In this document: positions 1 through 63,671 of the stretch, one piece after another | How positions within the stretch are numbered: the first letter of the stretch is position 1 | How the letters are laid out: every line of letters starts with the position of its first letter | Origin: Escherichia phage F13 | Direction: 5' to 3' (one strand) | DNA: 64,000 nucleotides | Sequence record: OP745617 | Translations under genes and position numbers: made by a program | Notes under the pieces: model-generated | What the model was told of the DNA's origin: nothing | The model's input: the letters and a program-made list of their open reading frames with translations, nothing else | Databases searched by the model: none

Positions 1-20
1 TCTTTATAAGGTACTCGACC

Positions 21-368
21 ATGGCTCATGTTAAAGACGAAGTGTTGTTTGGCGCAGAGATTAAGAAACGTGTCAGAGAAATGGCAGGAGAAGAAAGAGT
101 GAAGTCGCTGCGAAAAGGTTTTGATCACATCAATGGTGTATCCGGCACGAAGGAGATGGGCGTGTTGGTAAAAGACATTCGCATTGGCGATGTCATGGTC
201 ATCGACCGACAAGCACGAGTCGTTATCCAGGTGCAACCGAACGATGATGAAGGATGTGTCCTATTGAAGCTGAAGAAGCTTTCATCCAGCCCAGCAAAAG
301 CCGTCATCAAGAAGGTCTGGCCCGAAGGATTACGCAAACTCATTCGTCGACCCGTGGAGAATGTATAA
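21..368 (+). CDS. hypothetical early protein (115 aa)
   Basis: ORF in a tightly packed plus-strand array; stop overlaps the next start (TAATG). Confidence 0.4.
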   Translation: MAHVKDEVLFGAEIKKRVREMAGEERVKSLRKGFDHINGVSGTKEMGVLVKDIRIGDVMVIDRQARVVIQVQPNDDEGCVLLKLKKLSSSPAKAVIKKVWPEGLRKLIRRPVENV

Positions 369-604
369 TGGAAGATTATATCAATGCGATGTACATGGCA
401 TTCTATGTCGTGCAACTTCCCAATGGCGCGGTATTTTATGGCGAGTATACCTTTGACGTTCAATATGACGTTTCAGAGCGTACAGTGTTAACAAGGGAGT
501 TGATTGCGGACCTTAAGGACGACATAAAACGCGTCGCGCGGCAGCAGTTCAATTTGGATGACACCGTCATCGTTCGAATTACCGGAATAACAGAGGTGCA
601 GTGA
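368..604 (+). CDS. hypothetical early protein (78 aa)
   Basis: Internal ATG of ORF 254..604 placed at the stop of the upstream gene; translationally coupled. Confidence 0.35.
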   Translation: MEDYINAMYMAFYVVQLPNGAVFYGEYTFDVQYDVSERTVLTRELIADLKDDIKRVARQQFNLDDTVIVRITGITEVQ

Positions 605-933
605 TGACCCGTGATCAGATACTCGCCGCGCATGAGCGTGAGAAGGTGAAAGAGATTTGTAAAAGGCACGCATTATTTGCTGACTCTTATGTGTTCTTAA
701 AGTCTTGCATCAAACAAAACGCAAGGATGGATAACACTGTATTGACATTCAACCTTTTGTCTAACGGAGCAAAGCTTGATGCAATATGCGGGTGCAGAAT
801 TGCCAGCATGACGTTTGAACGAGGTGCTCACAAAGACTCTTTCTTCTATCAATTCTCCCACCGGACGGGTGATACAAAGATAACAAGGACAAGGCACGAG
901 ATAGAGATTGACCTACTCCACTATGTAAAATGA
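601..933 (+). CDS. hypothetical early protein (110 aa)
   Basis: ATGA overlap with upstream gene; several Cys residues. Confidence 0.4.
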   Translation: MMTRDQILAAHEREKVKEICKRHALFADSYVFLKSCIKQNARMDNTVLTFNLLSNGAKLDAICGCRIASMTFERGAHKDSFFYQFSHRTGDTKITRTRHEIEIDLLHYVK

Positions 934-949
934 ATGTCAAAGGTGATTT

Positions 950-1144
950 ATGAGTGTTAAACTAGACATACAGAAAACTCTTGATAAGGCCGCTGCAATA
1001 AAGAACTTCATGGATTGTTATGCCAGTTGCACGCTTTATGGAAGCGTGCCAAACGGCGACGTAAGGCCGGAAAGCATGCTTGAGTGGCTTGTTGAACATC
1101 GTTACATCATCGACATAGTTGATGAATACATAAAGCAGAAATGA
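950..1144 (+). CDS. hypothetical early protein (64 aa)
   Basis: ORF in the early gene array. Confidence 0.35.
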   Translation: MSVKLDIQKTLDKAAAIKNFMDCYASCTLYGSVPNGDVRPESMLEWLVEHRYIIDIVDEYIKQK

Positions 1145-1168
1145 ATATCAAAAAGGTGAGCTAAATGC

Positions 1169-1197
1169 TTGCCTTTTCTTTTATCAATACTTATACT
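1169..1197 (+). promoter_or_regulatory. sigma70-like promoter (-35 TTGCCT, 17-bp spacer, -10 TATACT)
   Basis: Hexamers read directly; part of a conserved ~80-bp block also present at 2399-2476; followed by GAGGTG RBS and ATG at 1229. Confidence 0.5.
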
Positions 1198-1228
1198 CTT
1201 TTCATCAAGACGAAAAGTGAGGTGAATT

Positions 1229-1546
1229 ATGATTTACTTAGGCATCGACAAGGAACAAGACGAGCGGTTAGGAAGCGTGTTAAACGTAGACTTGAACACA
1301 GCTGTACACATCAAGCCTTGGCCAGATGGCCACCCCGACGTAGTTGTACCCGTTGCGCCTTGGACGCGTTACGTTGCCATTGACAATAACGGCCTTGTTC
1401 ATTGTTATTCAGAAAGGCCAACGTATTTCGAGATGTACCGCGAATGGCTCATGACTGGATGGGCAAAGGTGCGCTGTTGCGGCGAAGTCGGTCTGGATGG
1501 CTGGAGCTTCGAGGCTAGTGAATCGTGTGTCGAGGTGCAATTATGA
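1229..1546 (+). CDS. hypothetical early protein (105 aa)
   Basis: ORF with GAGGTG RBS immediately downstream of the promoter block. Confidence 0.45.
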   Translation: MIYLGIDKEQDERLGSVLNVDLNTAVHIKPWPDGHPDVVVPVAPWTRYVAIDNNGLVHCYSERPTYFEMYREWLMTGWAKVRCCGEVGLDGWSFEASESCVEVQL

Positions 1547-1761
1547 ATGGCGCGCTGGGTAAGTTGTCTTTCAACAAGCGTAATGAGCTGCGCATGGTGT
1601 CGCGCTTTCAGTTTGTATTGAACGCAATGTCGAATATTGCCATCACGATGCTTCGCGCTGATTGCCCTGCTGAAAAGCGTGAGACTTTATTTGAACGTCA
1701 CAACCAATTACGAAAGGCTGCTTATAAGCTGCAGCAATATGCTATGGAGTATGCAAAATGA
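1543..1761 (+). CDS. hypothetical early protein (72 aa)
   Basis: Internal ATG overlapping upstream stop (ATGA). Confidence 0.4.
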   Translation: MNGALGKLSFNKRNELRMVSRFQFVLNAMSNIAITMLRADCPAEKRETLFERHNQLRKAAYKLQQYAMEYAK

Positions 1762-2141
1762 GAATGAAGCGTTGCCCTTACTGCCACGATGTGATGCACC
1801 TTCCACACGAAGAGTTTGTGCAGCACATGACTAACTGTGATAAGAATCCTAATAGCGAAAGCCAGCTTGAAGAAAGAATGTTCTTGGTGTCATTCAAAGC
1901 TTCTGCTTATGAAGTGCAACGTTCTTACGGCGCACCAAGTACGATTTACTGTCCAACAACATTGAGAAGTGATATCGACTCAATTCAGCTTGCTGCCTGG
2001 ATTAACGTTAAGGAAGGAATCACGCCGCACTTTATTGCGCGCATCCAATCTCAGATTCTACAAATGAAGCGCGAATACAACCGTGACATCACTGAAGTGA
2101 AGGTGTTGTCCATCACGCCAATGAATAAGGAGTTGCCGTGA
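1758..2141 (+). CDS. hypothetical protein with Cys/His cluster (127 aa)
   Basis: ATGA overlap; N-terminal CPYCHDVMHLPHEEFVQHMTNC suggests a zinc-binding motif. Confidence 0.45.
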   Translation: MRMKRCPYCHDVMHLPHEEFVQHMTNCDKNPNSESQLEERMFLVSFKASAYEVQRSYGAPSTIYCPTTLRSDIDSIQLAAWINVKEGITPHFIARIQSQILQMKREYNRDITEVKVLSITPMNKELP

Positions 2142-2398
2142 ACAAGGGTCCGATGACTAAGTTAGCCGTTGCCGCGCGGAAGCTTCGACAAGCCGTTAAT
2201 GGGTCGCGCCCCGTGGTGTTAACACTCGACGACGCAAAGGCACTGGTAGAGCTACTCGACGAGCACAACCGACGCAAGAATCTGGAGAACACATTACGCT
2301 GGCGCGTTACTCCGAAAGGGCGGGAGAGTGAAAAGAAAGCTTACTTGCGACGCAAACTAAGGTCGGTCGGCCTCCACGAAGAGGCGAAGAATATTTAA
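2138..2398 (+). CDS. hypothetical basic protein (86 aa, GTG start)
   Basis: GTG start overlapping upstream stop; Arg/Lys-rich C-terminus. Confidence 0.4.
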   Translation: MNKGPMTKLAVAARKLRQAVNGSRPVVLTLDDAKALVELLDEHNRRKNLENTLRWRVTPKGRESEKKAYLRRKLRSVGLHEEAKNI

Positions 2399-2420
2399 TT
2401 CAAAAAGGTGATCTAAATGC

Positions 2421-2448
2421 TTGCCTTTTTATTTGCCTGTATTATACT
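2421..2448 (+). promoter_or_regulatory. sigma70-like promoter (-35 TTGCCT, 16-bp spacer, -10 TATACT)
   Basis: Second copy of the conserved promoter block; followed by AAGGAG RBS and ATG at 2477. Confidence 0.5.
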
Positions 2449-2476
2449 TAGTTCATCAAGCAAAGGAGATTTGATT

Positions 2477-2779
2477 ATGAGTTACGACGAAAGGTTTGGC
2501 AGAAGTGGATTATTTCACGATGCTGTATGTAAGGACAGCCAAGATGTTGTCTGCGTATTCAACGTTGATTCTTACGGCGTGCTCAAACCGTTTAAAATCG
2601 GTGAGACATACGAATTGTTTCACGGATGGTTGACGCGTCGCAACAACCTTCCTGATATGGAAGTCTGGTGGATAGAATATAAGGGCCAGGCCCATCGCTG
2701 CAAGGTTGTAGAGGTGCGCGGCGTGAACTACTATCAATCTGTTATCAGCGGCTTTGTTTTTAAAGAGGGTGAGCTATGA
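2477..2779 (+). CDS. hypothetical early protein (100 aa)
   Basis: ATG with AAGGAG RBS; the longer ORF start at 2417 lies inside the promoter and is rejected. Confidence 0.45.
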   Translation: MSYDERFGRSGLFHDAVCKDSQDVVCVFNVDSYGVLKPFKIGETYELFHGWLTRRNNLPDMEVWWIEYKGQAHRCKVVEVRGVNYYQSVISGFVFKEGEL

Positions 2780-3081
2780 GTACCGAAGCAATGAAGAAAA
2801 AGATTTTGAACGCTTTGCAAGAAGCCGTGAACTGTGGTGCAATTAAAGAGTTCAAGGAGACGCAAGAAGGCGGTGAGCCAGTATTCTTCTTTAAGAATAA
2901 AAAGGACGGTGTAGCGGCAATCATGCTATTAAAGAATAGTGATGATACATTTATTCTTTGCGTCGGCGGTTACGACCTTGTCACTGATGATGCATTCATC
3001 ACTTGTGTCGACGGCCTTAATCCTATGTTGACATTTGAGCGTCGCGCCATCCGTGTTGCAACGTTTGGAGGGAATTTATGA
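2776..3081 (+). CDS. hypothetical early protein (101 aa)
   Basis: ATGA overlap. Confidence 0.45.
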   Translation: MSTEAMKKKILNALQEAVNCGAIKEFKETQEGGEPVFFFKNKKDGVAAIMLLKNSDDTFILCVGGYDLVTDDAFITCVDGLNPMLTFERRAIRVATFGGNL

Positions 3082-3263
3082 GTACCGAAGTCCATAACGC
3101 TTCAGCAATGGTAAGCTTTTACCGTAACAAAGGCGTGTCACTCGTTAAAACGCCGCAAGGCATGATGTTCTTTGGCACGCGATTCCTTAAGGCTTCGGAG
3201 CGTGAAACGCTGTCCAAGTTTGACCAGAAAACATTGCACGCAGTTTGGAGAAGACAACAATGA
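3078..3263 (+). CDS. hypothetical early protein (61 aa)
   Basis: ATGA overlap. Confidence 0.35.
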   Translation: MSTEVHNASAMVSFYRNKGVSLVKTPQGMMFFGTRFLKASERETLSKFDQKTLHAVWRRQQ

Positions 3264-3553
3264 GATTAAGCCTAGCTCAGATTCAGACATTATATCGCAT
3301 GGAAGACGGCACATCATACATGTTGCGCGGCGACCGCAAGAAGGCTTATGAGAAACGGCCTTCATTGTTTCACGACGTTAACGCGCCATCAATCCCTGTC
3401 TTATTCCGGCTGGGCCTTGTTGACTGGAAAGTGCCAGGAGAGAAAGACCCAACTCGATATTCACCGGTTGTGATGACAAAGAAAGGTCGTGCAGCATTAA
3501 AAGAAATTAAAGAGCATATGGCTGGAGAAAAATACTATGACATCAAATCTTAA
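3260..3553 (+). CDS. hypothetical early protein (97 aa)
   Basis: ATGA overlap; motif GAGAAGACAACAATG also precedes the gene at 3718. Confidence 0.4.
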   Translation: MRLSLAQIQTLYRMEDGTSYMLRGDRKKAYEKRPSLFHDVNAPSIPVLFRLGLVDWKVPGEKDPTRYSPVVMTKKGRAALKEIKEHMAGEKYYDIKS

Positions 3554-3717
3554 GGCCCGTTTGTTATTCATCAAGCCGCATGTGCCATATAAGATTAGTA
3601 AGCGCACCTGGCTTAACATTTACAACCGCAGCGGCGACCGTTGTCTGTACAAGGCGAAGCGACGCAAGAAGGTATATTCTTACACAACATCTATCAAATA
3701 AATAGGAGAAGACAACA

Positions 3718-4221
3718 ATGAAAATAGAACAACTCGAAGCAGTATTGGAAATGGCCGTAAAAGCTGGCGCAATCAGAAGCTATCGCCGCGAGAAGTCGGA
3801 AAACGATATGGTGTTTTGTCGCAACTTCTATATCGTCGGCAACCTTAATGACCACTACACCATCGAGTGGTATACTAACATGATGACGCTTAAGTCGCGC
3901 ACCATGGAGCTTTGGTGTGATGACATCTGCTTATCCAACACCCATCCATCCTACGACGTTGCATTGGCATTCTATTACGGAAGCCGTCAACCTGTCGCCC
4001 ACATCGGTGAGAAGCATGAGCATCTTAAGGCGCGACCAGAGGAATCAATGGAAGGTTGGATTGAATGGGCTGGCGGCAAGAATCCGGTGCCTGGTAAGAA
4101 GGTCATGTTGATGTGGAGGAATGAAGGGAAGTCTTCTTATTCATCCAATTCAGAAGGATGGCTATGGCAGCACAACGGAAGCGTTTATGACATCATTGCT
4201 TATCGCGTCGTGGAGGAATAA
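3718..4221 (+). CDS. hypothetical protein (167 aa) sharing a C-terminal domain with 5103..5528
   Basis: RBS GGAG; C-terminus WIEWAGGKNPVPGK...DIIAYRVVEE parallels the 5103..5528 product. Confidence 0.5.
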   Translation: MKIEQLEAVLEMAVKAGAIRSYRREKSENDMVFCRNFYIVGNLNDHYTIEWYTNMMTLKSRTMELWCDDICLSNTHPSYDVALAFYYGSRQPVAHIGEKHEHLKARPEESMEGWIEWAGGKNPVPGKKVMLMWRNEGKSSYSSNSEGWLWQHNGSVYDIIAYRVVEE

Positions 4222-4562
4222 TGGAAGAGCAAGAAGGCCGTGAGCTAACATTTGACGAGCAGATGCAAGAGCTTCAGCGCACATCGCCGCTGCGCGGTAA
4301 GGTTGTTGACATTGAGGCGAGCGAATCCAATCTCACCCAGTGGCGACTCAAGTGCACCAGCACAAGCAAGGATATGTTAAGCTTCAAAGTCGGTCAAACC
4401 TATTTGCTTTATGAGGCAAAAGGACTTATTATTGATGGAAGGCAAATCGTCTTCACGGTAGTCAGCGGAATGCGTTGGTTCGTGAAGCGTGATGTCGAGG
4501 GCCGTGATATGTTTGTCGCAGGCTTTCCAGAAACAAGATTCCAATTGGAGAAGGTTAAATGA
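4221..4562 (+). CDS. hypothetical protein (113 aa)
   Basis: Start overlaps upstream stop. Confidence 0.45.
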   Translation: MEEQEGRELTFDEQMQELQRTSPLRGKVVDIEASESNLTQWRLKCTSTSKDMLSFKVGQTYLLYEAKGLIIDGRQIVFTVVSGMRWFVKRDVEGRDMFVAGFPETRFQLEKVK

Positions 4563-4888
4563 AATTGAAATGGTACGTGGACCCTGAGCCGACAGGCCAA
4601 TACAGGTCATTCCAACGTCGCGGCTGGCCGATTTGTTACAGCGGCAATCCCGATAAAGAAGATTGCGAGATGCTCGCCGCGATAGTAAGTCTTAACCATG
4701 ACGGCTATGAAGGCCACTACGCGAGAGCAACCAACCTTCGGCTCAAGGTGCGCATCCATTTCAAGGTCGCAGGCGAGGACCGCACCGGACTCTCCAAAGA
4801 AGAGTTCAGCAGCATTGCCGAAGCAAAGGCATGGCTAAAGGCATTCTACAAGGCCAATCCTAAATTTTATCCAACTAAGGGTGCATAA
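4559..4888 (+). CDS. hypothetical protein (109 aa)
   Basis: ATGA overlap. Confidence 0.45.
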   Translation: MKLKWYVDPEPTGQYRSFQRRGWPICYSGNPDKEDCEMLAAIVSLNHDGYEGHYARATNLRLKVRIHFKVAGEDRTGLSKEEFSSIAEAKAWLKAFYKANPKFYPTKGA

Positions 4889-5106
4889 TGACCGATAAAC
4901 AATACGCAGTCGGGCAACGTGACATCGAGCAACTCGACGAGGGCGGTTATTATACACGCCACATCTATGCTATGACTCAAGAAGGACTTTACAGCAAGTC
5001 GGACATCGCCGCTGAACTGGCCCATCGCGACTTGCAAATTGATCTTCTCAAGATAGAAGTGCAGAACTTACGAAACACCCTGTTAAACACCTGGAGCTTA
5101 AAATGA
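4888..5106 (+). CDS. hypothetical protein (72 aa)
   Basis: Start overlaps upstream stop. Confidence 0.4.
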   Translation: MTDKQYAVGQRDIEQLDEGGYYTRHIYAMTQEGLYSKSDIAAELAHRDLQIDLLKIEVQNLRNTLLNTWSLK

Positions 5107-5528
5107 TACAGCGTTACGACCTGACATATGATGTGGCATCGGACGATTTCGCCGTCACTCCCGTTCCAGAAAGTCATGAAGGACGTTTTGTTGCATATGA
5201 GGACTATGAATCACTGCTCAAGCTTAATGAGTCGCTAACAAAAGAGATTGAGCAATACCACGAGCGCATCAAAGTCGCTGAAGATGTTATCAAGCTTTTT
5301 AGCGAGGCTGTTGAGAAATACAAGGAGCGCAACGTACCGATTAAGGAGGAAGCGTGGACCGTGTGGCTTGGTGGTGAGAATCCTGCACCTGGCGAGATTG
5401 TTGAATACAAGCTGCGCAATGGAGGTGATAAAGTATTGTCGAGACTTTCTGACCATCTTCACTGGGGTCATATAGGAGCACTCAAAGGCAGCGACATCAT
5501 TGCTTATCGGGTCGTTAAGGAGGGGTGA
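5103..5528 (+). CDS. hypothetical protein (141 aa), paralogous C-terminal domain
   Basis: C-terminus WTVWLGGENPAPGE...DIIAYRVVKEG similar to the 3718..4221 product. Confidence 0.5.
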   Translation: MIQRYDLTYDVASDDFAVTPVPESHEGRFVAYEDYESLLKLNESLTKEIEQYHERIKVAEDVIKLFSEAVEKYKERNVPIKEEAWTVWLGGENPAPGEIVEYKLRNGGDKVLSRLSDHLHWGHIGALKGSDIIAYRVVKEG

Positions 5529-6061
5529 TGGGTAACGATGCAGGATGGGGCAAGCCGCGATACTCAAAACTTGCCCACTACTTTGACGACGGCGAGCAAA
5601 TCAGCTTGTGCGGTAAATTCAACAAAGGCAATACAGAGTTGACCGATGCTCAAGAAATGGAATCAAGTCTGACAATTGGTGATTGCTCTAAGTGCAGAAA
5701 GGCATTATATGAGTTATTGACTCTAAGGGGATTGAAAGCGGCAAAATCAAGGGATGAATGGGTCATCAACGTCTGTGAAGGGAATCCAGAATTGATGGAT
5801 GAATTGCTGAAAACAGATGCCGTTAATGCCATTTTCAAAAGGCATTATAAAACTTGTATGCGTTACAAGATGAATGATGATATTATTTTTATGGTATTAT
5901 CTTATTCAAGGAGCACAATGGACGTCAAAAAGCTTCGACAATATCGCCACAAGGTCATGTGTGAATTGCGCCGTTTAGGAGTTATTGTGGATAATAATGT
6001 CATTAAAACGGAGTTAAAGAAGCGTGATAAAAGGAATGGTGACTGGAAGGTCAGCGGATAA
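5525..6061 (+). CDS. hypothetical protein (178 aa) with possible Cys cluster
   Basis: ATGA overlap; SLCGKF...DCSKCRK spacing suggests metal binding. Confidence 0.5.
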   Translation: MMGNDAGWGKPRYSKLAHYFDDGEQISLCGKFNKGNTELTDAQEMESSLTIGDCSKCRKALYELLTLRGLKAAKSRDEWVINVCEGNPELMDELLKTDAVNAIFKRHYKTCMRYKMNDDIIFMVLSYSRSTMDVKKLRQYRHKVMCELRRLGVIVDNNVIKTELKKRDKRNGDWKVSG

Positions 6062-6319
6062 ATAAACACTGTTTACGTGTTTTGAAGAATGGAATGTGTG
6101 CAATGGGTCGCTTTATGCGGCCTTTTGTCGTTTGGGTCATGTTTTGCTATGGAATAATTATGAGGTTGTGTTTTATTTATTAATTGTGCGGAAATATTTA
6201 GAAATATATATAAACAGGATTGTTAATATTTTAATAGTTTATGGCTATTGGTCCGTGGTGTTTGTTAGATTCTATCTATGGATTGGATTTTCTTGGGTCG
6301 TGAAACGTGGTTTTGAACA

Positions 6320-6690
6320 CATTTGATACGCCTAAAATACGGTTAAAAATTAAGCGTATCATGGCTGCAGGCCGCGCCGTTCCTGGATTCCTCTTTTCCA
6401 AATTGGTACACCCTTACGTCATGATACGTCATGGTTTTTTATCCGTATCAGTGTACAACCCTTGCCGCGCCTGGCTTGTACATTAATCTTACGGATGATA
6501 CGGATAAAACTGAGCATCGTTATATATAGAATTCGAAAAATTAATTAACTCCATTTTAAAAACATTTATATTAATTTTTTTCATATCCTCATACTTATGT
6601 TAATTTATATATTTAACGTATCATCCGTAAGATATAAGTAAAAACAAAGACTTGCGGCAATACGGATGATACGTCATGATACGCTTCAAC
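6320..6690. repeat. iteron-like module: direct and inverted ATCCGTATC / GATACGGAT 9-mers flanking an AT-rich core (copy 1)
   Basis: Repeats read directly (tatccgtatca, ttacggatgatacggat, cgtatcatccgtaag, tacggatgatacgtcatgatacg); AT-rich core 6530-6615; homologous module at 22845-23135. Confidence 0.7.
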
Positions 6691-8946: not shown

Positions 8947-8974
8947 TTTACTTCTTCGTACACTCGCGTATACT
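8947..8974 (+). promoter_or_regulatory. sigma70-like promoter (-35 TTTACT, 16-bp spacer, -10 TATACT)
   Basis: Diverges from the minus-strand promoter; drives the gene at 9031. Confidence 0.45.
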
Positions 8975-9030: not shown

Positions 9031-9333
9031 ATGACTACTTTAATCTCTTCCATCCTTACTTACGACGAAGACCGTTTAACCGTTCGCTCTCTTATCGCCG
9101 CCGTTAACGCCGAACTAGAATCTAGCGCCATTAAGGTCCGCGCGGTTGCCTTCGTCGGTCTTTCCTTCGACGATATCAAGTACGCCGAACGTAGCGCCAT
9201 CCGCTTCGCGAAGACCGACGACGAAGCCGTTACCCTTATCGAGACGGTTACTCCGCGCGGCGAAACGTTAATTATCGTCGAGTATATCGACGTAGAAGGC
9301 GATAAGGCTTATAAATATTTTATCGCAAAATAA
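9031..9333 (+). CDS. small protein (100 aa), probable distant member of the same paralog family
   Basis: ATG with GGGAG RBS; 3' 200 bp of this gene is duplicated in the tandem repeat. Confidence 0.5.
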   Translation: MTTLISSILTYDEDRLTVRSLIAAVNAELESSAIKVRAVAFVGLSFDDIKYAERSAIRFAKTDDEAVTLIETVTPRGETLIIVEYIDVEGDKAYKYFIAK

Positions 9334-9744
9334 CGAAAAAGTGCTTTACTTCTTAGTACACTAAGACTATAATGTTTTATATCGAGAGGGGATGAGGTAG
9401 CGAATAGGTCGCTACCCTCCCGACTAACTAGGAGAATATTACGCGCGGTTGCCTTCGTCGGTCTTTCCTTCGACGATATCAAGTACGCCGAACGTAGCGC
9501 CATCCGCTTCGCGAAGACCGACGACGAAGCCGTTACCCTTATCGAGACGGTTACTCCGCGCGGCGAAACGTTAATTATCGTCGAGTATATCGACGTAGAA
9601 GGCGATAAGGCTTATAAATATTTTATCGCAAAATAACGAAAAAGTGCTTTACTTCTTAGTACACTAAGACTATAATGTTTTATATCGAGAGGGGATGAGG
9701 TAGCGAATAGGTCGCTACCCTCCCGACTAACTAGGAGAATATTA
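9139..9744. repeat. tandem direct duplication, 2 x 303 bp (9139-9441 and 9442-9744)
   Basis: Near-identical units read directly; each carries the gene 3' end, promoter (TTTACT-17-TATAAT at 9345-9373 and 9648-9676), leader hairpin and RBS. Confidence 0.85.
9442..9639 (+). pseudogene. promoter-less 3' fragment of gene 9031..9333 created by the tandem duplication
   Basis: Copy of the C-terminal coding part; at the junction the RBS is followed by ACG rather than ATG. Confidence 0.5.
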
Positions 9745-22844: not shown

Positions 22845-23135
22845 TTATACGTATAATGACGTATCATCCGTATCAAGTAAGTTGTTGTTTTCAAAAGAAT
22901 CTTACGGATGATACGGATGATACGCGTTGCCGCCGTACTATATAGGAATTCAAATAAATTAATTTAAAATTATATATCTAATTTAATTTTATTTTTTTAT
23001 AAACTCTTATATATATGAAAAGTATCCGTATCATCCGTATCATCCGTAGCACACCAGTGATAGCGCGGCTTATACACCGATACGGATAAAAATACGCCTC
23101 ATTTTATCCGTATCATCCGTATCACACTAATAAAG
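22845..23135. repeat. iteron-like module (copy 2): GATACGGAT / ATCCGTATC 9-mer arrays flanking an AT-rich core
   Basis: ttacggatgatacggatgatacg (22901-22923), gtatccgtatcatccgtatcatccgta (23021-23047), tatccgtatcatccgtatc (23105-23123); shares the 21-mer aatcttacggatgatacggat with copy 1. Confidence 0.7.
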
Positions 23136-24657: not shown

Positions 24658-25275
24658 ATGACTTTCCAAACTAGTGTAGGCCGTCAATATACAACTGGCT
24701 TTCCTGGCGACATCGTTCGCGACGGCCCACAGCGTGGGAAGCCAGGCCGAATCGTTAGCGCCAACGACGGTGCAAACGTAAACGCCATCAGCCGTGTGTT
24801 TGGTTTTAAGGCTGACGTGTCATTAATGGGTACTGGCCAGACCAAAACCTTGGGCGCGCAGGACTTTGAAGTTGAACTGGGCGGCACCAATTACTATGGC
24901 ATCCTTGGCAACAGCAAGCGTTACGCTCTGTATGGCAACTCTACTGGTCCTTTGGGTGCCAGCATGGTTCTGCCTCAATATAGCGAAGGCGAGTTCTACG
25001 ATATGTGCACGGGCCTCGTAGTTGAAGTGTTCAACCCAAGCACCAGTCCGCAGACGCTGAACTACGGCGACCTGCTCGCTTATGTACCTAAAGGCATTTC
25101 CAGCGGTAACAACCCGAACAACTTGCCTATCGGTGCAATTATCGCCTATACTGGCTCACTGCCAACTGGCATGGTTGCCATTCCAGGCGGTATCGTGATT
25201 GACCCGACTGCTATTGCCCTTTCCGGCCCAAGCGTCCAGTCTTCCACTTATACCATTGTACAATTGACTCGTTAA
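24658..25275 (+). CDS. head-associated structural protein (205 aa)
   Basis: ATG after AAAGGGG RBS; Gly/Ser-rich; immediately upstream of capsid. Confidence 0.45.
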   Translation: MTFQTSVGRQYTTGFPGDIVRDGPQRGKPGRIVSANDGANVNAISRVFGFKADVSLMGTGQTKTLGAQDFEVELGGTNYYGILGNSKRYALYGNSTGPLGASMVLPQYSEGEFYDMCTGLVVEVFNPSTSPQTLNYGDLLAYVPKGISSGNNPNNLPIGAIIAYTGSLPTGMVAIPGGIVIDPTAIALSGPSVQSSTYTIVQLTR

Positions 25276-55136: not shown

Positions 55137-55688
55137 TTATACAGTGTACGGAGTACCGTCTTGATTCAAGCGCACGATAAACTTCAAATCAACGCCGATG
55201 ATTTCACGCGTATCAAAGATCACATAGTTGTAACGACGTTGACCAGCAATGTTCGGGTTGGTATGAGAGTCAGTTACAACTTCCTGTGCAACCTGAATAC
55301 CTTCTTCTTTAAAGAACTTACGCCATTCAGCAAGTTCAGCGGCAGTCACGTGCATGCCAAGGTGGCTGACCTGATTGTCATGCGCATCGATATATTCGAT
55401 GTTTTCGTTAATCCAGTTGCAGCCCATTGTGTAGTCAAGGATTTCAAGCTCAAGAGGCTTACCAGCGCCGCCATCAGTACCGTTGCCAGCCTGATAGTTG
55501 AAGCGCAAGTCAGCTTCATTGGTGCAATCGTCGCGACGACCTTTAAAGTCATCAGCTTCAAATACGCGACCAGTAGCAACAACATGATCATGGAACCATT
55601 CTGTCAGGCCGATTTTAGCCAAGAAATCCTGTGCGCGCTGAGCATCTGGAATTGACAGGGCGATTTGTTCAATTTTAAAATGTGGCAT
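55137..55688 (-). CDS. VOC (glyoxalase/bleomycin-resistance-like) family candidate
   Basis: 183 aa; two beta-alpha-beta-like modules; low-confidence fold guess. Confidence 0.3.
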   Translation of the reverse strand: MPHFKIEQIALSIPDAQRAQDFLAKIGLTEWFHDHVVATGRVFEADDFKGRRDDCTNEADLRFNYQAGNGTDGGAGKPLELEILDYTMGCNWINENIEYIDAHDNQVSHLGMHVTAAELAEWRKFFKEEGIQVAQEVVTDSHTNPNIAGQRRYNYVIFDTREIIGVDLKFIVRLNQDGTPYTV

Positions 55689-56533: not shown

Positions 56534-57406
56534 CTATTTATTGAAATTAATATTATGGGTGTTTACAAGACGTTCACACATGGCGCTATAAACACCATCG
56601 TCGTGTATTGAGTCTTCGTGCTTCAGGCCGCTGATTGCGAAGCGTGTAAGCTTGACAATCTTAAGCTCGAACAGATGCCACATGTGGTAGTCTTCCGGCG
56701 TTTTCAACGTTACGCCATTAGGGAAAAGCACCTGCATAACCTGACCTACCATCACAGCGTTATCGCCATAGACAGCGTTGCGCTCACGGAAGGTCGCTGC
56801 CATTGCATCAAGAATATCGGCGGCAGTTGCCGGAGATTGTTCAACTTCCACAGCCTTAGTCTCTTCTTGCCCTGTTGCGCTTGGATCAATTGCTAATTGT
56901 TGCACCACTTCACCTGCTTTGCAAAGATTAAATGTAAAAGCGATTTTATTTTGAGCAACGGAGTTATAATACAATGCTTCATCTTGCATCCGCGCGAGTA
57001 CGTCTTGTCGGTCGTCGAATACATTGATGATTCGATAATCGCCGTGCCGCAAAGCGTGCGATAGCCATGCAGATTTCATAATAGTTGATGGACGTTTGTC
57101 GCCATAGTCTCTCATCTTGATTGTAAATTCATCAAAAGGGAAAACATTGTCCAGACGTTCAAAAGTCACTTGTCTGTATTTTTCTGGCCTTGCAGTCCAA
57201 TATTCAACCGCCTCACCGCGAAGAGATGCCGACTCTACTGCTGATGCAATGTGAGGATAGAACTGATCATAACCAATACCGCTGTGATAGTCATCATAGT
57301 CTGACAACGGACCTGCCACCTTGATGCGGTCTAAGCGCCAACGGTCATCAAACAGAGTTCCGTCAAGGTCGAATACGTTTAAGATTTGGTTATTTTTGAT
57401 ACTCAT
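56534..57406 (-). CDS. HAD-family phosphatase domain fused to a C-terminal domain of unknown function
   Basis: 290 aa; HAD motif I FDLDGTL, WTARP, K, NVFDD; about 120 aa of unassigned C-terminus. Confidence 0.5.
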   Translation of the reverse strand: MSIKNNQILNVFDLDGTLFDDRWRLDRIKVAGPLSDYDDYHSGIGYDQFYPHIASAVESASLRGEAVEYWTARPEKYRQVTFERLDNVFPFDEFTIKMRDYGDKRPSTIMKSAWLSHALRHGDYRIINVFDDRQDVLARMQDEALYYNSVAQNKIAFTFNLCKAGEVVQQLAIDPSATGQEETKAVEVEQSPATAADILDAMAATFRERNAVYGDNAVMVGQVMQVLFPNGVTLKTPEDYHMWHLFELKIVKLTRFAISGLKHEDSIHDDGVYSAMCERLVNTHNINFNK

Positions 57407-58206
57407 CCTTTTGATACTCCATCTTTGGCAACCGGATTATTGGTGATTGGCATCGCATCCCAAAACTGGATGCGCAACTCTTCTTGCTGTGCAGTGGTAT
57501 CCATCCAATCACGATACCAAGGGCAATGGGCCTTGCCATGGCGAGGGAATGCGCACTTGCCCATACCGATGCATTGCGGCTGTAGTAAAGGATTAGCCCA
57601 CGGGTGCACCTTGAGGACTTCCGCTACCATCGCACGGAAAACTTCCTGATACTCGCCTTGAGTACGCGTGCACAAGCGGTTAGAGGCCATTTGTTGTAGA
57701 GTGCGCAAGTTGAACTTTGCCATGATATGCGTTTGCATATTAGAAGGCAACACGGCACGTGCATCTTGAATCTCTGCGCCAGCCGCGCGAAGTTCTTGGT
57801 ATAGGGCGTCAATGGTTGCCATTGCATCATCCCATTTCTCTGCCAGTTCAGCAGCCTTCTCGTCATGACGAGTCCATCCCTTTGGATCATCCTCTGGGTA
57901 AGTGAATTTGGCAGGACGAATCGCATCAAACGCTGACGACTCCTGAGCGCGGCTTGTTCGTTCTTGATATGCACCTGTTCGTGTGCGCACCATCTGATGA
58001 GTCATATTCTTTGATACATCAGTGATGTCAAAGATATAGTCAACAAAGTCGAAAGGTGACTTTATGGTGTCAAGCATGTAGCGCCAGTGCTCTTGCTTCT
58101 CTGATTCTGTCATCTCAGAGACTGGCTTACCAGCCATGCGCGTATTCTTTGTTTCCAGCAGAAGGTCAAGTGCATCTTGGGTGTATCGAATTAATTCAAC
58201 TTTCAT
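57403..58206 (-). CDS. divergent flavin-dependent thymidylate synthase (ThyX)-like protein
   Basis: 267 aa; N-terminus and core align with ThyX (PFDFVDYIFDI...HQMVRTRTGAYQERTSR; ARAVLPSN) but RHR is RTR; Cys-rich C-terminal extension. Confidence 0.55.
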   Translation of the reverse strand: MKVELIRYTQDALDLLLETKNTRMAGKPVSEMTESEKQEHWRYMLDTIKSPFDFVDYIFDITDVSKNMTHQMVRTRTGAYQERTSRAQESSAFDAIRPAKFTYPEDDPKGWTRHDEKAAELAEKWDDAMATIDALYQELRAAGAEIQDARAVLPSNMQTHIMAKFNLRTLQQMASNRLCTRTQGEYQEVFRAMVAEVLKVHPWANPLLQPQCIGMGKCAFPRHGKAHCPWYRDWMDTTAQQEELRIQFWDAMPITNNPVAKDGVSKG

Positions 58207-58219
58207 TTTAATTATCCTA

Positions 58220-58666
58220 TTAACGGTAGTTAACTAGTTGCTGATCACCAGAGAAGGTGCAATGATAAACGAATTGTGCGTTATAAAGCAACTGAAAACT
58301 TTTCTTTGGTTCATTATTAGAACTCATTGATGTAAAGATTTCTGCACCAGAACGGTTTTCACCAATCAGGTTGATAAAGCCGCCAGTTGAACGAGGCTGA
58401 ACGAAAGTGAAACGTTGCATCCACGGAGTGCGGTTGGCACCTTTCCCTGTGAATCCTTGAATCTGAATATTCAGGCCTTCTTGCTCGTTCACACCGATGT
58501 AAGTGGTAATTGTTGCGCCAGTCGTTGCTGCAGTCTTGCCGTCCATCGCTTCGCAATCGTAAACAGCGATTGAATCGGAAGTACGGACAGCGGCTTCAGT
58601 CGCTTCCATATACATGGTTCCGAGAATAGCAGTTGCGGCAAGCGCGATTCCAGTGATTCGTTTCAT
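58220..58666 (-). CDS. small secreted protein (148 aa)
   Basis: Signal peptide MKRITGIALAATAILGTMYMEATEAA; two Cys. Confidence 0.45.
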   Translation of the reverse strand: MKRITGIALAATAILGTMYMEATEAAVRTSDSIAVYDCEAMDGKTAATTGATITTYIGVNEQEGLNIQIQGFTGKGANRTPWMQRFTFVQPRSTGGFINLIGENRSGAEIFTSMSSNNEPKKSFQLLYNAQFVYHCTFSGDQQLVNYR

Positions 58667-58731
58667 TTTCGTTTCCTCTATGAGTTCTGCTTCAATGATT
58701 AAAGTATACGCCCATTGAAGCAGAAAGCAAA

Positions 58732-59727
58732 TTATTTATTAGCAATATAAGCAAATTTTTGATAGTTATTTGCTTTGATGAGTTTTTCAACTTCAACAAG
58801 GTCATGAGCAACGTCATCAAGCAAAATGTTTCGCCAAGTAGCAAAGCGACCGACACTAAATACGTTCAAATCCATGGTCAGCTGTAGGAGTAGAGCGTGT
58901 CGCAAGTCTTTCGGAATGTCGACAATCTTGCCATACTTCTGGTCGACCTTTTCAACTTCTTCGAGATCGATGTCACTCCATGATAGGCCAAAGGCTGTCA
59001 ATACTTCGTCAACTTCTGCACGCAACTTAATGTCACGGTAACGAGTAATGCCGCCAGCGGCTTCAACTGCGGCTTCACTTACGCTAACCAAAGGAATTGT
59101 TTCAATGATCAGTGTGTCACCAGTGATTGATGCGCGGTAAGTTCTGACGGAGTAGTCAGGAAAGTAAATGGTTTGATACAGTGCACACTTGCGCTTAATC
59201 TTAAAGCGGTAAACACGAATGTTTGCCTTATCGAATGAGAAATCAATCTTTTGATCAATCCCAGCAAGCTTCATCATGACTGGCAGCGGCGACGTGTTGA
59301 TGATTGGCGTCTCGCTATAGCCGCAAAGAGTATCAACAGGAGTATTAAAGAATATGCGGTCACCCAGTTTGTCGACAAGCTGATCATAAAAGTCATCAGG
59401 CGCAATATAACGCGTTGCAGTTTTAAGCTTCATGATTGAGCGGCTACCGAATTGATTAGTGACCTTCATGGAATACATATTGGCAAGGTTGATTGGGCAA
59501 TGGTCGTGGTAGTAGTTGCCGCGAAAATACACAGCCTTGTCAACTGTCACGGCCTTAAAAGGGATTCCGGTAATACGGCTTACTTCTTCGCCGCGAAATC
59601 GTAGCAAAGCCTTGTGCTGTGGCGCTCGTTCCCCTGCTTCGTACACAATGGAGTTCGGGAAGTGACACGCGGTAATAAGTCCTGCCAAACCGCCGCCGAT
59701 AATCATTACAGGTTGTTTCATGTTCAT
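58732..59727 (-). CDS. FAD/NAD(P)-binding oxidoreductase
   Basis: 331 aa; N-terminal Rossmann motif VMIIGGGLAGLITA. Confidence 0.55.
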   Translation of the reverse strand: MNMKQPVMIIGGGLAGLITACHFPNSIVYEAGERAPQHKALLRFRGEEVSRITGIPFKAVTVDKAVYFRGNYYHDHCPINLANMYSMKVTNQFGSRSIMKLKTATRYIAPDDFYDQLVDKLGDRIFFNTPVDTLCGYSETPIINTSPLPVMMKLAGIDQKIDFSFDKANIRVYRFKIKRKCALYQTIYFPDYSVRTYRASITGDTLIIETIPLVSVSEAAVEAAGGITRYRDIKLRAEVDEVLTAFGLSWSDIDLEEVEKVDQKYGKIVDIPKDLRHALLLQLTMDLNVFSVGRFATWRNILLDDVAHDLVEVEKLIKANNYQKFAYIANK

Positions 59728-59860
59728 TTGTCCTTTGTGGGTGATATGAGAAGTATAATAGCTAAATTATTTTACAGCAACAAGTCATTTCTATTTAGTA
59801 CAGACGAAAAAGACCCACAACAAGTGTGGGTCAATTACCGCTATATAACCGTCCTACAGG

Positions 59861-60706
59861 TTATTCCGCTTGATCACCGTCTTCGGCATTGTCGTTGGAT
59901 TCAACATCGACAAACTCGATGTGGCCCATCTCTTCCAGCTTGCTCAGGTAGGAGCGAACGGAAGCGCCAAACAGTTGATCTTTAACTTTTTCGCCCAGCT
60001 CATCGATAGACTGCGCCACGCCAACTTCGCCTTCTTTGATCGCCGCCAGAACGCGTCCACGGGTGGAATGCTCTTGCGGCTGGCTCAGGCCATTGCCGGT
60101 GTAGATGAAGTGAGTGGCTTTTGCACGACGCTGACCGTTTGCCTTTTTAGCAGCCTTGCGCTCTGCGATGGCTTTGCGACGTTCTTCAGCTTCTTTCTTA
60201 CGCTGTTCTTTCTGCTGTTCTGCAGCTTCTTTAGCCGCAATCTTAGCAGCTTCACGCTCTGCCTTGCGTTTCGCTTTAGCTTCTTCTTTGGCCTTCTCTT
60301 TTTCGGCCTTCGCTGCAGCACGGGCTTGATCACGCTCTGCTTTCTTGGCCGCAGCCTGCTCAGCTTTCAGGCGCTTGGCTTCTTCTTTAGCCTTTGCCTT
60401 TTCGATTTCTTTTGCTGCTTTAGCGGCTTCACGCTCTGCTTTCTTAGCAGCAGCCTTTTCTGCACGCTCTTTAGCTTTCTTAGCTGCTTCTTCAGCACGC
60501 TTCTGCGCCTTCTCATCAGCAGCCTGCTTGCGTTTCAGCGCAGCTTCTTCACGCTTGGCTTGTTTTTCCTGCTCACGCTTCTGGCGCTTCTCTTCGGCTT
60601 CTTTCTTTTTAGCCAGGCGTTTTTCTTCAGCCACGCGACGACGTTCTGCTGCGGCTGCTTGTTTTTCTTCTTTAGATAATACTTTGATTGCTTCGGCCAT
60701 ATTCAC
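59861..60706 (-). CDS. Lys/Ala/Glu-rich low-complexity protein with C-terminal globular domain
   Basis: 281 aa; about 190 aa of KEA-rich helix then about 80 aa of ordinary sequence; opposite-strand ORF is a shadow. Confidence 0.5.
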   Translation of the reverse strand: MNMAEAIKVLSKEEKQAAAAERRRVAEEKRLAKKKEAEEKRQKREQEKQAKREEAALKRKQAADEKAQKRAEEAAKKAKERAEKAAAKKAEREAAKAAKEIEKAKAKEEAKRLKAEQAAAKKAERDQARAAAKAEKEKAKEEAKAKRKAEREAAKIAAKEAAEQQKEQRKKEAEERRKAIAERKAAKKANGQRRAKATHFIYTGNGLSQPQEHSTRGRVLAAIKEGEVGVAQSIDELGEKVKDQLFGASVRSYLSKLEEMGHIEFVDVESNDNAEDGDQAE

Positions 60707-60859
60707 AGTCCTTAAATAAATTAGTTTATTTTATATTCCCCGTTTGGGATAACTTAATTATGCCTTCAGTTGCCGCCAGTAGCAACTAAAAACTATGGCG
60801 GCAATGCCACTTTAATTAAACTGATTTTCAGTTTTATTTTTCGTAAATTTACGTCAACA

Positions 60860-62044
60860 TTAACGCGCTTTCAAATCACGGTACACGGTCAGATTCTTCT
60901 TAGCACGGGTGATAGCGGTGTACATCATCTTGGAGTACGGAACGCCGCGCAAGATTTCTTCCAGCACGCACACATTATCCCACTCGCTGCCTTGCGATTT
61001 GTGCACCGTGATGACATAGCCATAGTCCATCCCGCCAACAGCGCGTTGCGCTTCTTTGCGCACTTCCTGATCAGTAGAGAAGGAAAGAGGATTGATCTTC
61101 ACCTTTATATCTTTACCATCAGTTAATGAACGCAAGTTGACATACATTATTTCATTCGACTCATCTTCATCCCTTTCAAAGTCCGGCACTGGCTCATAGC
61201 TAATAACAATCCCTTGCTCGCCATTACAGAATCCTGGACCGTGTTGGTTGAATGTGCAAATAACCTTCTCGCCGATTCCTGGCATTGGCGTTATACGTCC
61301 GCTCACTTGCCGTAATAATGAATTCCATTTATCTTTGGTGCTATTATAGGAGCAAATAATTTGATCATCTTCGCCCATGAATTTCTTCAATGCAGTAACG
61401 CGCGGCGATTCTGCCAATACTTTGACGTCATCGTATTCACGCGGGGGAAGGCGGTTGCCTTGGCGCACGAAGAAGGAGGCGCGGATTATATTGGACTCTT
61501 TCCCTTGCCGCATGATTTCGGTTAACAGCACGTCAACGGCATCTTCAGTAAAGTAGGCGGCGGCTTTTACCGGAGGGACTTGTCCAATGTCGCCTAATGC
61601 CAGGACAGGGATGCGGTGATCAAGAAGGCGCTCTGTGTCCCACTCGCCAACCATCGACGCTTCATCGAGTACAACAAGGTGCGGCCTTTCATCCAGCTTT
61701 GACTTTCTCGAAAAGATTGGCTCATTGTCGTCATTTACGCCGCGCACGTTATAGATGAACTGGTGAAGGGTCTTAGCGCCACGACAGCCTTTTTGCTTTA
61801 ATCGGCTTGCAGCCTTTCCGGTCGGCGCAATATAGATAGCTCCATACTCACCGACACAACGGCGCACAATCTCGCGAGCAATAGAGGTTTTACCAGTCCC
61901 TGCATAGCCAGCGATGAAAAACACGCGCTTCGTCGTTTTACCGTCCTGCAATCGCTTGTACCATGCAACGGCTTTCTCGATGGCGTCGATTTGTTGCGCG
62001 TTAAACTGAATCACTGGCTCATCATTAAATTCTGGAATGTTCAT
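60860..62044 (-). CDS. Dda/RecD-like SF1 DNA helicase
   Basis: 394 aa; Walker A GYAGTGKTS, Walker B LVVLDEASMV, C-terminal VITVHKSQGSEWD...YTAITRAK. Confidence 0.7.
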   Translation of the reverse strand: MNIPEFNDEPVIQFNAQQIDAIEKAVAWYKRLQDGKTTKRVFFIAGYAGTGKTSIAREIVRRCVGEYGAIYIAPTGKAASRLKQKGCRGAKTLHQFIYNVRGVNDDNEPIFSRKSKLDERPHLVVLDEASMVGEWDTERLLDHRIPVLALGDIGQVPPVKAAAYFTEDAVDVLLTEIMRQGKESNIIRASFFVRQGNRLPPREYDDVKVLAESPRVTALKKFMGEDDQIICSYNSTKDKWNSLLRQVSGRITPMPGIGEKVICTFNQHGPGFCNGEQGIVISYEPVPDFERDEDESNEIMYVNLRSLTDGKDIKVKINPLSFSTDQEVRKEAQRAVGGMDYGYVITVHKSQGSEWDNVCVLEEILRGVPYSKMMYTAITRAKKNLTVYRDLKAR

Positions 62045-62370: not shown

Positions 62371-62530
62371 TTCAGGCGACCTTTGTTAGTGCGGAAATAT
62401 TTTCTGATAGTATAATTGCAGATATAGTATAAAGCAAAGTAAATCGAAATTGTGAACTAAATGGTAAATATTGTTGACTTTGTATCACTCAATATTATAC
62501 TGCAGGTATTGATCACCAAAGGAAAGAAAG

Positions 62531-63613
62531 ATGGCTAGTTTAAGAGAAGAAGCAAAAATAATTGAAGAGTTTTTAACAGAACTCCAGAGAGGCATCCCAG
62601 AAGATGAGCGCGTCATGACGGTGTTTGCTCCTGAAGCAACGGTGCAGACTGACGAGCGCGGAAAGAAGATTAACAGCAGCTTCTGGCCTAAGCCTTGGAA
62701 GTTGGGCAAGCCGCTCATGCAGCACCAAAACGGCTATGCTTGCATCAGTTCAATGCGTAAGTCTCCCAACCCAAAGACGGGTGAGATGCGATACTGGCGT
62801 ACAGAGTCGGCCTTTGGTCACGGTATGGCGATGATGGTCGACGACATCGGTCACGGTAAAGGGTCCAAAGGCGATTTAGATTTGGAATTCTTTTTTGAGC
62901 GACTGAAGCCGACTGTCATCGTCGAGACTTCACCGAACAACCACCAGCTTTGGTACTTCTTTAAAGAACCGATTGACCATCTTATTCAGTTCAAAGCGTT
63001 CCTTGGGTCTTTCGTTAACATGGTACTCAAGAAGGGCGGCGACAACACGATTAAAGACGTAACGCGCGTGGGCCGTGTTCCTGGGTGCATCAATAACAAG
63101 CGTGTGACTCACGACGGCCCCTATAAATATGTCGATGAGAACGGCGACCCGTTCCGCTGCCGACTTGTCCATGCAGACTACTCCTTGCGCTACACCATCG
63201 AAGACATTTGTCACGCATTTGGCTTTCACGTCGTCATGCCGCAAAAGCGTGAGATTCAAATTGACGTCGATGAATACAAGTATGATGCCGTTTGGTATAA
63301 AATAGCCCAGCAGATTCTGGCGCGCAACAAGATGGGTGAAGGGTCTGATGGCGACGTCATCGAGAATATGTCAGGCAAGTGCCGCATAATCTGTCCTTGG
63401 GGTGAAGAGCACACCAACGGCGACCCGTATGGCGCGTACTTTCGCGGCCCTATCCCTGGTGCAGAACATGAATTTGTGTTCGGTTGCGCCCACGACTGTC
63501 ACCGGAAAGGGGAAGGCAAGAAAGGTTGGACTGCTTTTGTTGAAGCAATCGTCATGCCTTATATTGAGAATCAACTTGACATGATAAATCGTCGTGCAGG
63601 TGGCATAAAATAG
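62531..63613 (+). CDS. primase-like protein (AEP / prim-pol-like core with C-terminal Cys/His cluster)
   Basis: 360 aa; acidic MMVDDIG, ETSPNNHQLWYFF, RVGRVPGCINNK, and CPWGEEH...CAHDCH. Confidence 0.45.
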   Translation: MASLREEAKIIEEFLTELQRGIPEDERVMTVFAPEATVQTDERGKKINSSFWPKPWKLGKPLMQHQNGYACISSMRKSPNPKTGEMRYWRTESAFGHGMAMMVDDIGHGKGSKGDLDLEFFFERLKPTVIVETSPNNHQLWYFFKEPIDHLIQFKAFLGSFVNMVLKKGGDNTIKDVTRVGRVPGCINNKRVTHDGPYKYVDENGDPFRCRLVHADYSLRYTIEDICHAFGFHVVMPQKREIQIDVDEYKYDAVWYKIAQQILARNKMGEGSDGDVIENMSGKCRIICPWGEEHTNGDPYGAYFRGPIPGAEHEFVFGCAHDCHRKGEGKKGWTAFVEAIVMPYIENQLDMINRRAGGIK

Positions 63614-63671
63614 TTTGCTTTTATTTTCATAGCAACTATAATCATTTTATGAACTGAAGCAGAGGTGATTT

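Follow-up and report, generated by a model that had tools for sequence, protein, structure and literature searches.

Two conserved intergenic blocks of Wifcevirus are probable terminator-promoter cassettes

The stretch of DNA analysed here (the window, 64,000 nucleotides) comes from Escherichia phage F13 (record OP745617) and is 100% identical to Escherichia phage vB_EcoM_SP13 (OP352608), of the genus Wifcevirus; we refer to the window sequence as SP13. It contains two look-alike intergenic blocks, A (1145-1228) and B (2399-2476), which an initial annotation had placed correctly and had interpreted as near-identical early promoters. Both belong to a + strand gene array that runs from a divergent promoter region near 62.4 kb through two primase genes, continues across 4.8 kb that the window lacks, and stops at 6061. 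Relative to the deposited linear record, the window is circularly permuted (its position 1 corresponds to record position 61933 and its position 62380 to record position 55526), and it does not include record positions 57147-61932, part of the gene array. Downstream of the P-loop primase gene the array consists of about 25-30 small genes that overlap or abut over ~9 kb. In well-annotated relatives, the blocks are the sole gaps of more than 40 nt from the P-loop primase gene to the end of the array. The genes of the array are ORFans, and those flanking the blocks have either no PHROG match or matches of "unknown function" only. Those flanking A are unrelated to those flanking B and the similarity is limited to the intergenic cassette, on which ground we rejected an ancient duplication of the cassette together with a gene. 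The features of the two blocks, and the hairpin that would close the last unit of the array, are listed below.

1141-1228, + strand: whole cassette A, which overlaps the stop codon of the upstream gene (TGA, 1142-1144) and extends up to, but not into, the ATG of gene 1229-1546
1151-1177, + strand: predicted terminator hairpin A, with 5' arm AAAAGGTGAGC (1151-1161), loop TAAAT (1162-1166) and 3' arm GCTTGCCTTTT (1167-1177)
1169-1174, + strand: putative -35 hexamer A, TTGCCT, within the 3' arm of the hairpin; invariant in 19 genomes
1174-1182, + strand: T-tract A, TTTTCTTTT, 8 of 9 T, tail score 4.48; doubles as the first half of the promoter spacer
1192-1197, + strand: putative -10 hexamer A, TATACT, after a 17-nt spacer; all six positions invariant
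1201-1209, + strand: motif TTCATCAAG of A; A1204 is the predicted +1, 7 nt past the -10 and preceded by C
1219-1231, + strand: Shine-Dalgarno (SD) sequence GAGGTGA (1219-1225) and ATG of gene 1229-1546
2399-2476, + strand: whole cassette B, which starts immediately behind the upstream stop codon (TAA, 2396-2398) and extends up to, but not into, the ATG of gene 2477-2779
2403-2429, + strand: predicted terminator hairpin B, AAAAGGTGATC / TAAAT / GCTTGCCTTTT
2421-2448, + strand: putative promoter B, with -35 TTGCCT (2421-2426), a 16-nt spacer and -10 TATACT (2443-2448); hexamers invariant in 19 genomes
2426-2434, + strand: T-tract B, TTTTTATTT, 8 of 9 T; doubles as promoter spacer
2452-2460, + strand: motif TTCATCAAG of B; A2455 is the predicted +1
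2463-2479, + strand: SD sequence AAGGAG (2463-2468) and ATG of gene 2477-2779
6105-6123, + strand: terminator-like hairpin GGGTCGC-TTTAT-GCGGCCT followed by a T-run, after the last gene, which ends at 6061

The resemblance between the blocks far exceeds that of shuffled controls (mean identity 50%, sd 3%, maximum 61%), since their global alignment has 64 identical columns out of 84 (76.2%), in agreement with the earlier figure of about 75%. The motifs said to be shared (CAAAAAGGTGA, TTGCCT, TATACT and TTCATCAAG) are each found in A and in B. A 30-nt core, TCAAAAAGGTGAnCTAAATGCTTGCCTTTT, occurs twice in the 64 kb where no occurrence is expected, and its two copies are identical at 29 of 30 positions. 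The term "near-identical" suits the first ~35 nt, where ungapped identity reaches 91%, but not the remainder, where identity is patchy: past this point A and B share TTATACT (7/7), TTCATCAAG (9/9) and the last bases before the ATG, whereas spacer and leader have diverged. A search of the whole genome for the block returned exactly two full copies, and the window has only two perfect copies of TTCATCAAG. We rejected the idea of a wider family with the same extended motif, because there are two such sites only; a third TTGCCT-N18-TATACT, at 25123, is intragenic and lacks the other features.

Judged by its sequence, the best-conserved part of the blocks is a canonical intrinsic terminator, not promoter sequence. 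Hairpin A has 11 pairs, and its G/C core in the terminator scan spans 7 bp (1155-1161 with 1167-1173), including two G.U pairs; it is preceded by an A-run and followed by the T-tract. As + strand RNA, hairpin A folds at -14.2 kcal/mol (z = -4.1), a value that none of 200 shuffles equalled, and hairpin B of SP13, weakened by the base T2412, at -8.0 kcal/mol (z = -1.55). The folds of the - strand are weaker at both sites (-11.8 kcal/mol at A and -4.1 kcal/mol at B). The stem has two non-Watson-Crick pairs, which would be G·U in RNA from the + strand but A·C in RNA from the - strand, and this asymmetry suggests that the element is read from left to right as RNA, rather than being a DNA palindrome. 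On a d'Aubenton-Carafa-type discriminant of which the ranking alone is meaningful, no + strand position of the window surpasses copy A as a terminator, and copy B in its genus-typical form has an even higher score. The base at 2412 is G in the B copy of the 18 other genomes and in every A copy, so that T2412 of SP13 breaks one G-C pair; on the same ranking score, copy B passes from +11.4 with G2412 to -22.7 with T2412. This substitution is predicted to weaken termination strongly, and it might be a sequencing error. The terminator half is already annotated in the GenBank records of phages WFC and WFH, which label the 19-nt core GGTGAGCTAAATGCTTGCC at both sites as "putative transcriptional terminator, -10.10" (ARNold). 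Core and T-run are thus exactly what has been annotated as an ordinary Rho-independent terminator. Neither record mentions that a putative promoter overlaps the terminator, that the two sites are paralogous or that they are exceptionally conserved, and the literature that we searched seems to hold no description of these points.

The promoter assigned to each block by the initial annotation stands as a plausible one of the sigma70 type. The base-by-base comparison of 38 copies from 19 genomes shows that both hexamers and the start-site motif TTCATCAAG are constant in all of them. TTGCCT matches the sigma70 consensus at 4 of 6 positions and TATACT at 5 of 6. The start sites, A1204 and A2455, are inferred from the geometry of these elements; C-A is a typical start-site context. 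Spacer and leader differ between A and B, yet they are fixed within each site across genomes, and invariant hexamers and start motif beside a spacer that differs between the sites are what one would expect where it is the hexamers and the distance between them that matter. The conservation beyond the hexamers that had been noticed is real, but it is driven by the hairpin and T-run of the intrinsic terminator, which hold the -35 and had been missed. Likewise, the proposal of a shared regulatory or leader element was right in spirit, although the element would be a composite of terminator and promoter and not an extended promoter.

The conservation of the blocks extends across the genus. All 28 Wifcevirus records contain exactly two copies, and the block was found neither in other phages, nor in 5,426 Escherichia coli genomes, nor in other metagenomic lineages. 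On the lack of any match in these E. coli genomes we rejected a host origin. In the 19 genomes compared, the blocks are far more constant than the genes next to them, as shown by the following columns.

Block A: 77 of 88 columns invariant (88%); longest invariant run, 27 nt
Gene 1229-1546, downstream of A: 69 of 318 invariant (22%), 32 of 106 at second codon positions; longest run, 3 nt
Block B: 63 of 78 columns invariant (81%); longest run, 17 nt
Gene 2138-2398, upstream of B: 78 of 261 invariant (30%); longest run, 5 nt

Within the hairpin, T2412 of SP13 aside, only the loop varies (TAAAT, TAAGT or TATAT). The differences between A and B are themselves fixed genus-wide, which points to an old duplication in which each site has been kept by selection, rather than to homogenisation between A and B. 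A pattern scan of IMG/VR and metagenomes in which the inner stem was left free returned identical stems only, and the search of Rfam with the block gave nothing near a gathering score. No homologous cassette exists in the nearest outgroup, Pantoea phage PA1 (Kylevirus), whose primase gene is 70% identical.

Two further sites in the window resemble the promoter half of the blocks. They were found with an nhmmer profile of all A and B copies, at E-values of ~0.01 that are marginal.

62474-62501, + strand: site C, TTGACT-16-TATACT, E = 0.007, hexamers 10/12, upstream of the first gene of the array (62531)
63614-63642, + strand: site D, TTTGCT-17-TATAAT, a possible promoter, E = 0.011, in the gap after gene 62531-63613

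Site C has GTGAnCTAAATG, ATTATACT and CAAAGGA in common with the cassettes, and is almost invariant in 7 genomes (one variable column in the 161 nt shown). Site D, also nearly invariant in 7 genomes, aligns weakly to the promoter half of A; its hairpin region is degenerate and it falls below the hexamer threshold used. Both sites are intergenic in the same + strand array and neither has an intact hairpin. Their positions make chance less likely as an explanation, which supports the view that the downstream half of the blocks is a promoter; moreover, a promoter must exist at the head of the array, where site C lies. Host-type promoters are plausible in Wifcevirus because there is a precedent in phage 14-1, of the sister genus Pbunavirus, which depends on the host polymerase and has 26 mapped sigma70-like promoters. 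Upstream of site C, the divergent-promoter region (62386-62440; 604-676 in L028) has the arrangement GTTAGTGCGGA ... ATAGTATAAT ... TATAAAGCAAAG, which is conserved between Wifcevirus and Pantoea phage PA1 though the flanks are only ~70% identical.

Taken together, these results make it probable that each block is a composite terminator-promoter cassette. The process, deduced from sequence, would involve 1) the folding of + strand transcripts arriving from upstream into the hairpin GGUGAGC-UAAAU-GCUUGCC, lengthened by A/U pairs; 2) the release of the RNA in the U-run that follows, with its 3' ends predicted to fall near 1180-1182 (A) and 2432-2434 (B); 3) the use of the same DNA as a promoter for the host sigma70 polymerase, in which the 3' arm of the hairpin would provide the -35, the T-run part of the 16-17-nt spacer, and TATACT the -10; 4) a restart at the A of TTCATCAAG, ~22-24 bp beyond the stop point; and 5) a new transcript with a 22-25-nt leader carrying an SD sequence before the next gene. 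The array would then be cut into three units, the first ending at 933/1144, the second covering 1229-2398 and the third 2477-6061 (closed at 6105), each of them with its own expression level and shielded from read-through. If the terminators work, the 5 and ~12 genes downstream of A and B need a promoter, which the cassettes would supply. What the analysis shows is the anatomy of the blocks, the strand specificity of the hairpin, the conservation across the genus and the genomic placement; the stop, the restart, the position of +1 and the timing are inferred.

Several points weigh against this interpretation. First, the G/C core has only 7 bp, of which 2 are G.U pairs (-8.7 kcal/mol), so termination may be partial. 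Second, the stem of copy B is mutated in SP13, yet the phage is evidently viable, and a strong terminator at B is thus not essential. Third, hexamers with 9 of 12 matches arise readily by chance: 12 kb contained 34 of them, for an expectation of 21.5. Fourth, 37 of 38 copies have the same stem and no collection searched holds a diverged homologue, leaving the hairpin without covariation support; because the stem never varies, covariation is uninformative either way. Fifth, our search of literature and data returned no transcript 5' or 3' ends for any Wifcevirus.

Elements with this kind of architecture are known, and what is unusual here is how well it is conserved; the architecture itself is not a surprise. 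One precedent is provided by the PeSLs (promoter-early stem-loops) of T4-type phages, cassettes of ~80-100 bp in which both termination at the stem-loop and firing of the promoter have been shown experimentally (Arbiol et al. 2010, PMC2839356; Comeau et al. 2014, PMC4122927). A PeSL comprises a stop codon or AT-rich stretch, a sigma70 promoter, a stem-loop with G-T pairs that can extend over the -35, an SD sequence and a start codon (PMC2839356). The blocks have the same components within ~100 bp and, like the PeSLs of the hyperplastic region, are conserved between unrelated ORFan genes. Unlike PeSLs, they occur in phages that are not T4-like (Wifcevirus is placed in Lindbergviridae in the lineage of the kaset record), they have no sequence similarity to them, their promoter is weaker (9/12 rather than a consensus match), and instead of ~50 copies per genome there are two full copies and two weak promoter-only relatives. 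A second precedent is that of the promoter-coupled terminators, experimentally shown overlaps between the terminator and the promoter of tandem units, with the termination site at most 35 bp from the start (modal distance ~10 bp) and a termination efficiency that is raised by promoter occupancy (Fletcher et al., bioRxiv 10.64898/2026.08.19.745784). The blocks have in common with these the use of stem-loop DNA as -35, the T-tract in the spacer, the -10 next to it, a Y-R step at +1 and the upstream A-tract. Their genes are also in tandem, but the stop-to-start distance, with both ends predicted, is ~22-24 bp and does not match the modal ~10 bp, and they belong to a phage rather than to a cellular genome. 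The cassettes would therefore seem to work like PeSLs and promoter-coupled terminators without being PeSLs in the strict sense.

A more ambitious proposal is that the cassettes are the Wifcevirus counterpart of PeSLs, the first outside T4-like phages, and that their near-perfect conservation, which exceeds that of every neighbouring gene, is maintained by three roles combined: as coupled terminators and promoters, as targets of a phage regulator that would bind the palindrome covering the -35, and as homology anchors by which co-infecting phages would exchange ORFan cassettes. We hold this combination to be unlikely. If true, such a regulator might have a share in the very fast infection that has been reported for Wifcevirus.

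The same modest standing goes to the possibility that the near-identity of the blocks is kept mainly as a homology anchor for swapping gene cassettes in co-infection, with regulation being secondary; on balance we find this improbable as the main role. It draws on the gene content of the region, which some relatives show to be different at each of the four edges of the blocks, on the ORFan nature of the flanking genes, as in PeSL regions, and on the jumps of identity to SP13 across A, e.g., from 95% to 83% in FEC19 and from 86% to 94% in Eco4M-7. An indel at gene 950-1144 is also flanked by a ~20-nt direct repeat of the 5' edge of the block, as follows.

928-946, + strand: partial third copy of the 5' edge of the cassette, AAATGAATGTCAAAGGTGA, forming with 1139-1159 the ~20-nt direct repeat around gene 950-1144

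This gene (195 nt) is present only in SP13, WFC and Bas100, and in 15 of 18 relatives the homology to SP13 stops at 946 and resumes at 1139. On the other hand, the comparison of SP13 with the 18 relatives reveals breakpoints at ~15 of the 19 gene junctions in 1-6100, most of which have no block, and no specific enrichment at the edges of the cassettes, unlike what is known of PeSLs. We thus rejected a recombination hotspot as a property specific to the blocks, since breakpoints occur at most gene boundaries of this mosaic array. Nor is there any sign of excision: a deletion between A and B, with loss of the intervening segment, occurs in 0 of 28 genomes, all of which keep two copies, a number that contrasts with the ~50 PeSLs per genome. 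Finally, the genus-wide fixation of the differences between A and B gives no sign of homogenisation. Shuffling by the blocks in the manner of PeSLs is a possibility that the comparison does not specifically support.

Somewhat harder to sustain is the idea that the blocks are terminators or attenuators only, in which case the hexamers would be fortuitous, the downstream genes would be expressed by leaky read-through, and the remaining conserved bases would be a leader, a ribosome-binding site (RBS) or an RNA-processing signal. The chance-level quality of the hexamers (9/12), the modest hairpin core (-8.7 kcal/mol) and the tolerance of SP13 for a weakened B hairpin are in its favour, but it does not account for the retention between A and B of TATACT, the C-A start motif and the 16-17-nt spacing amid diverged bases, nor for the -10 context shared with the promoter at the head of the array (site C), and a leader leaves the conservation of TTATACT unexplained. 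We regard it as distinctly unlikely.

Lower still we rank the reading of each block as a promoter with an operator, in which the inverted repeat over the -35 would bind a dimeric regulator of the phage or of the host that switches both promoters, with no termination involved; this we judge quite improbable. The palindrome does overlap the -35, a classic position for a repressor, the same site at two promoters would permit co-regulation, and the extreme conservation would also suit a protein-binding site. The palindrome of bacterial promoter-coupled terminators can bind a regulator as well, and there is the precedent of a bacterial terminator palindrome that doubles as a LexA site, so that such a role could be additional. 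Yet the half-sites match at 9 of 11 positions as DNA and both mismatches still pair (G.U) in the + strand RNA; the 8/9 T-run after the repeat and the A-run before it are needless for a protein site; the array sites C and D lack the palindrome; and no candidate regulator has been identified.

A short coding sequence (peptide MLAF...) starting from an ATG in the hairpin loop is scarcely credible and was rejected, in spite of a good RBS geometry (AAGGTGA-N5-ATG, with the SD-like AAGGTGA in the 5' arm) and of the open reading frames (ORFs) that depositors called here (2299-2661 in vB_Eco4M-7 and small ones in Bas98 and Bas99), because the loop ATG changes frame through 1-nt indels in the leader, which makes the depositors' ORFs over the blocks not credible, because the ORF varies in length (most genomes have 18 aa, SP13 has 72 aa or a fusion of 120 aa), and because its SD and ATG would be sequestered in the hairpin and transcripts from the predicted +1 would not contain this ATG.

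The terminator-promoter cassette yields a testable map of transcription units for the least understood region of Wifcevirus genomes, the array of about 30 ORFan genes, in a genus that is under development for biocontrol and detection of O157 and is a recent addition to the BASEL collection. The natural G-to-T variant in the stem of SP13 is a built-in control for the importance of termination. As compact parts that would stop and restart transcription by the host polymerase, the cassettes could possibly be reused in phage engineering. They would extend to another phage family the fusion of promoter and terminator into one conserved element, and no concept is changed by this.

Some other features of the region are worth recording. 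Downstream of B, the genes start nearly alike, with ATGAGTACCGAAG at 2776 and 3078 and ATGAGTTACGACG at 2477, and relatives differ in which of genes 2477, 2776 and 3078 directly follows block B, as if deletions had taken place between the shared gene starts. A separate family of sigma70-like promoters, TTTACT-16/17-TATAAT with conserved downstream sequence, is found at 8947-8974, 9345-9373 and 9648-9676 on the + strand and at 8902-8875 on the - strand; the member at 8947 has TATACT as its -10. The family is common to Wifcevirus and Pantoea phage PA1 (Kylevirus), with members at 12535, 14874 and 15283 in L028. It lies near the terminal repeat, is stronger than the cassette promoters and is the better candidate for immediate-early transcription, likely the true promoter set of that phase; the label "early" that the initial annotation gave to the blocks is not supported.

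The same part of the window contains an exact tandem duplication of 300 nt (9139-9438 and 9442-9741, spacing 303). In each unit, a strong TTTACT-17-TATAAT promoter is accompanied by the downstream motif GTTTTATATCGAGAGGGG and by a hairpin. The duplicated region, 901 nt long, corresponds to no more than ~598 nt in the second terminal-repeat copy of the SP13 record and in each of the relatives listed, where all 28 records matching the region cover most of the query. The extra 300-nt unit would thus have arisen by a very recent duplication, unless it stems from misassembly at the terminal repeat. Lastly, the 13-mer TACGGATGATACG has 9 perfect copies, in both orientations, in two non-coding clusters (6490-6673 and 22860-23121), where ~1 match would be expected even with 2 mismatches allowed. 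In their sequence these clusters look like iterons or protein-binding repeats, and the first of them is roughly at the expected start of the ~3.7-kb terminal repeat.

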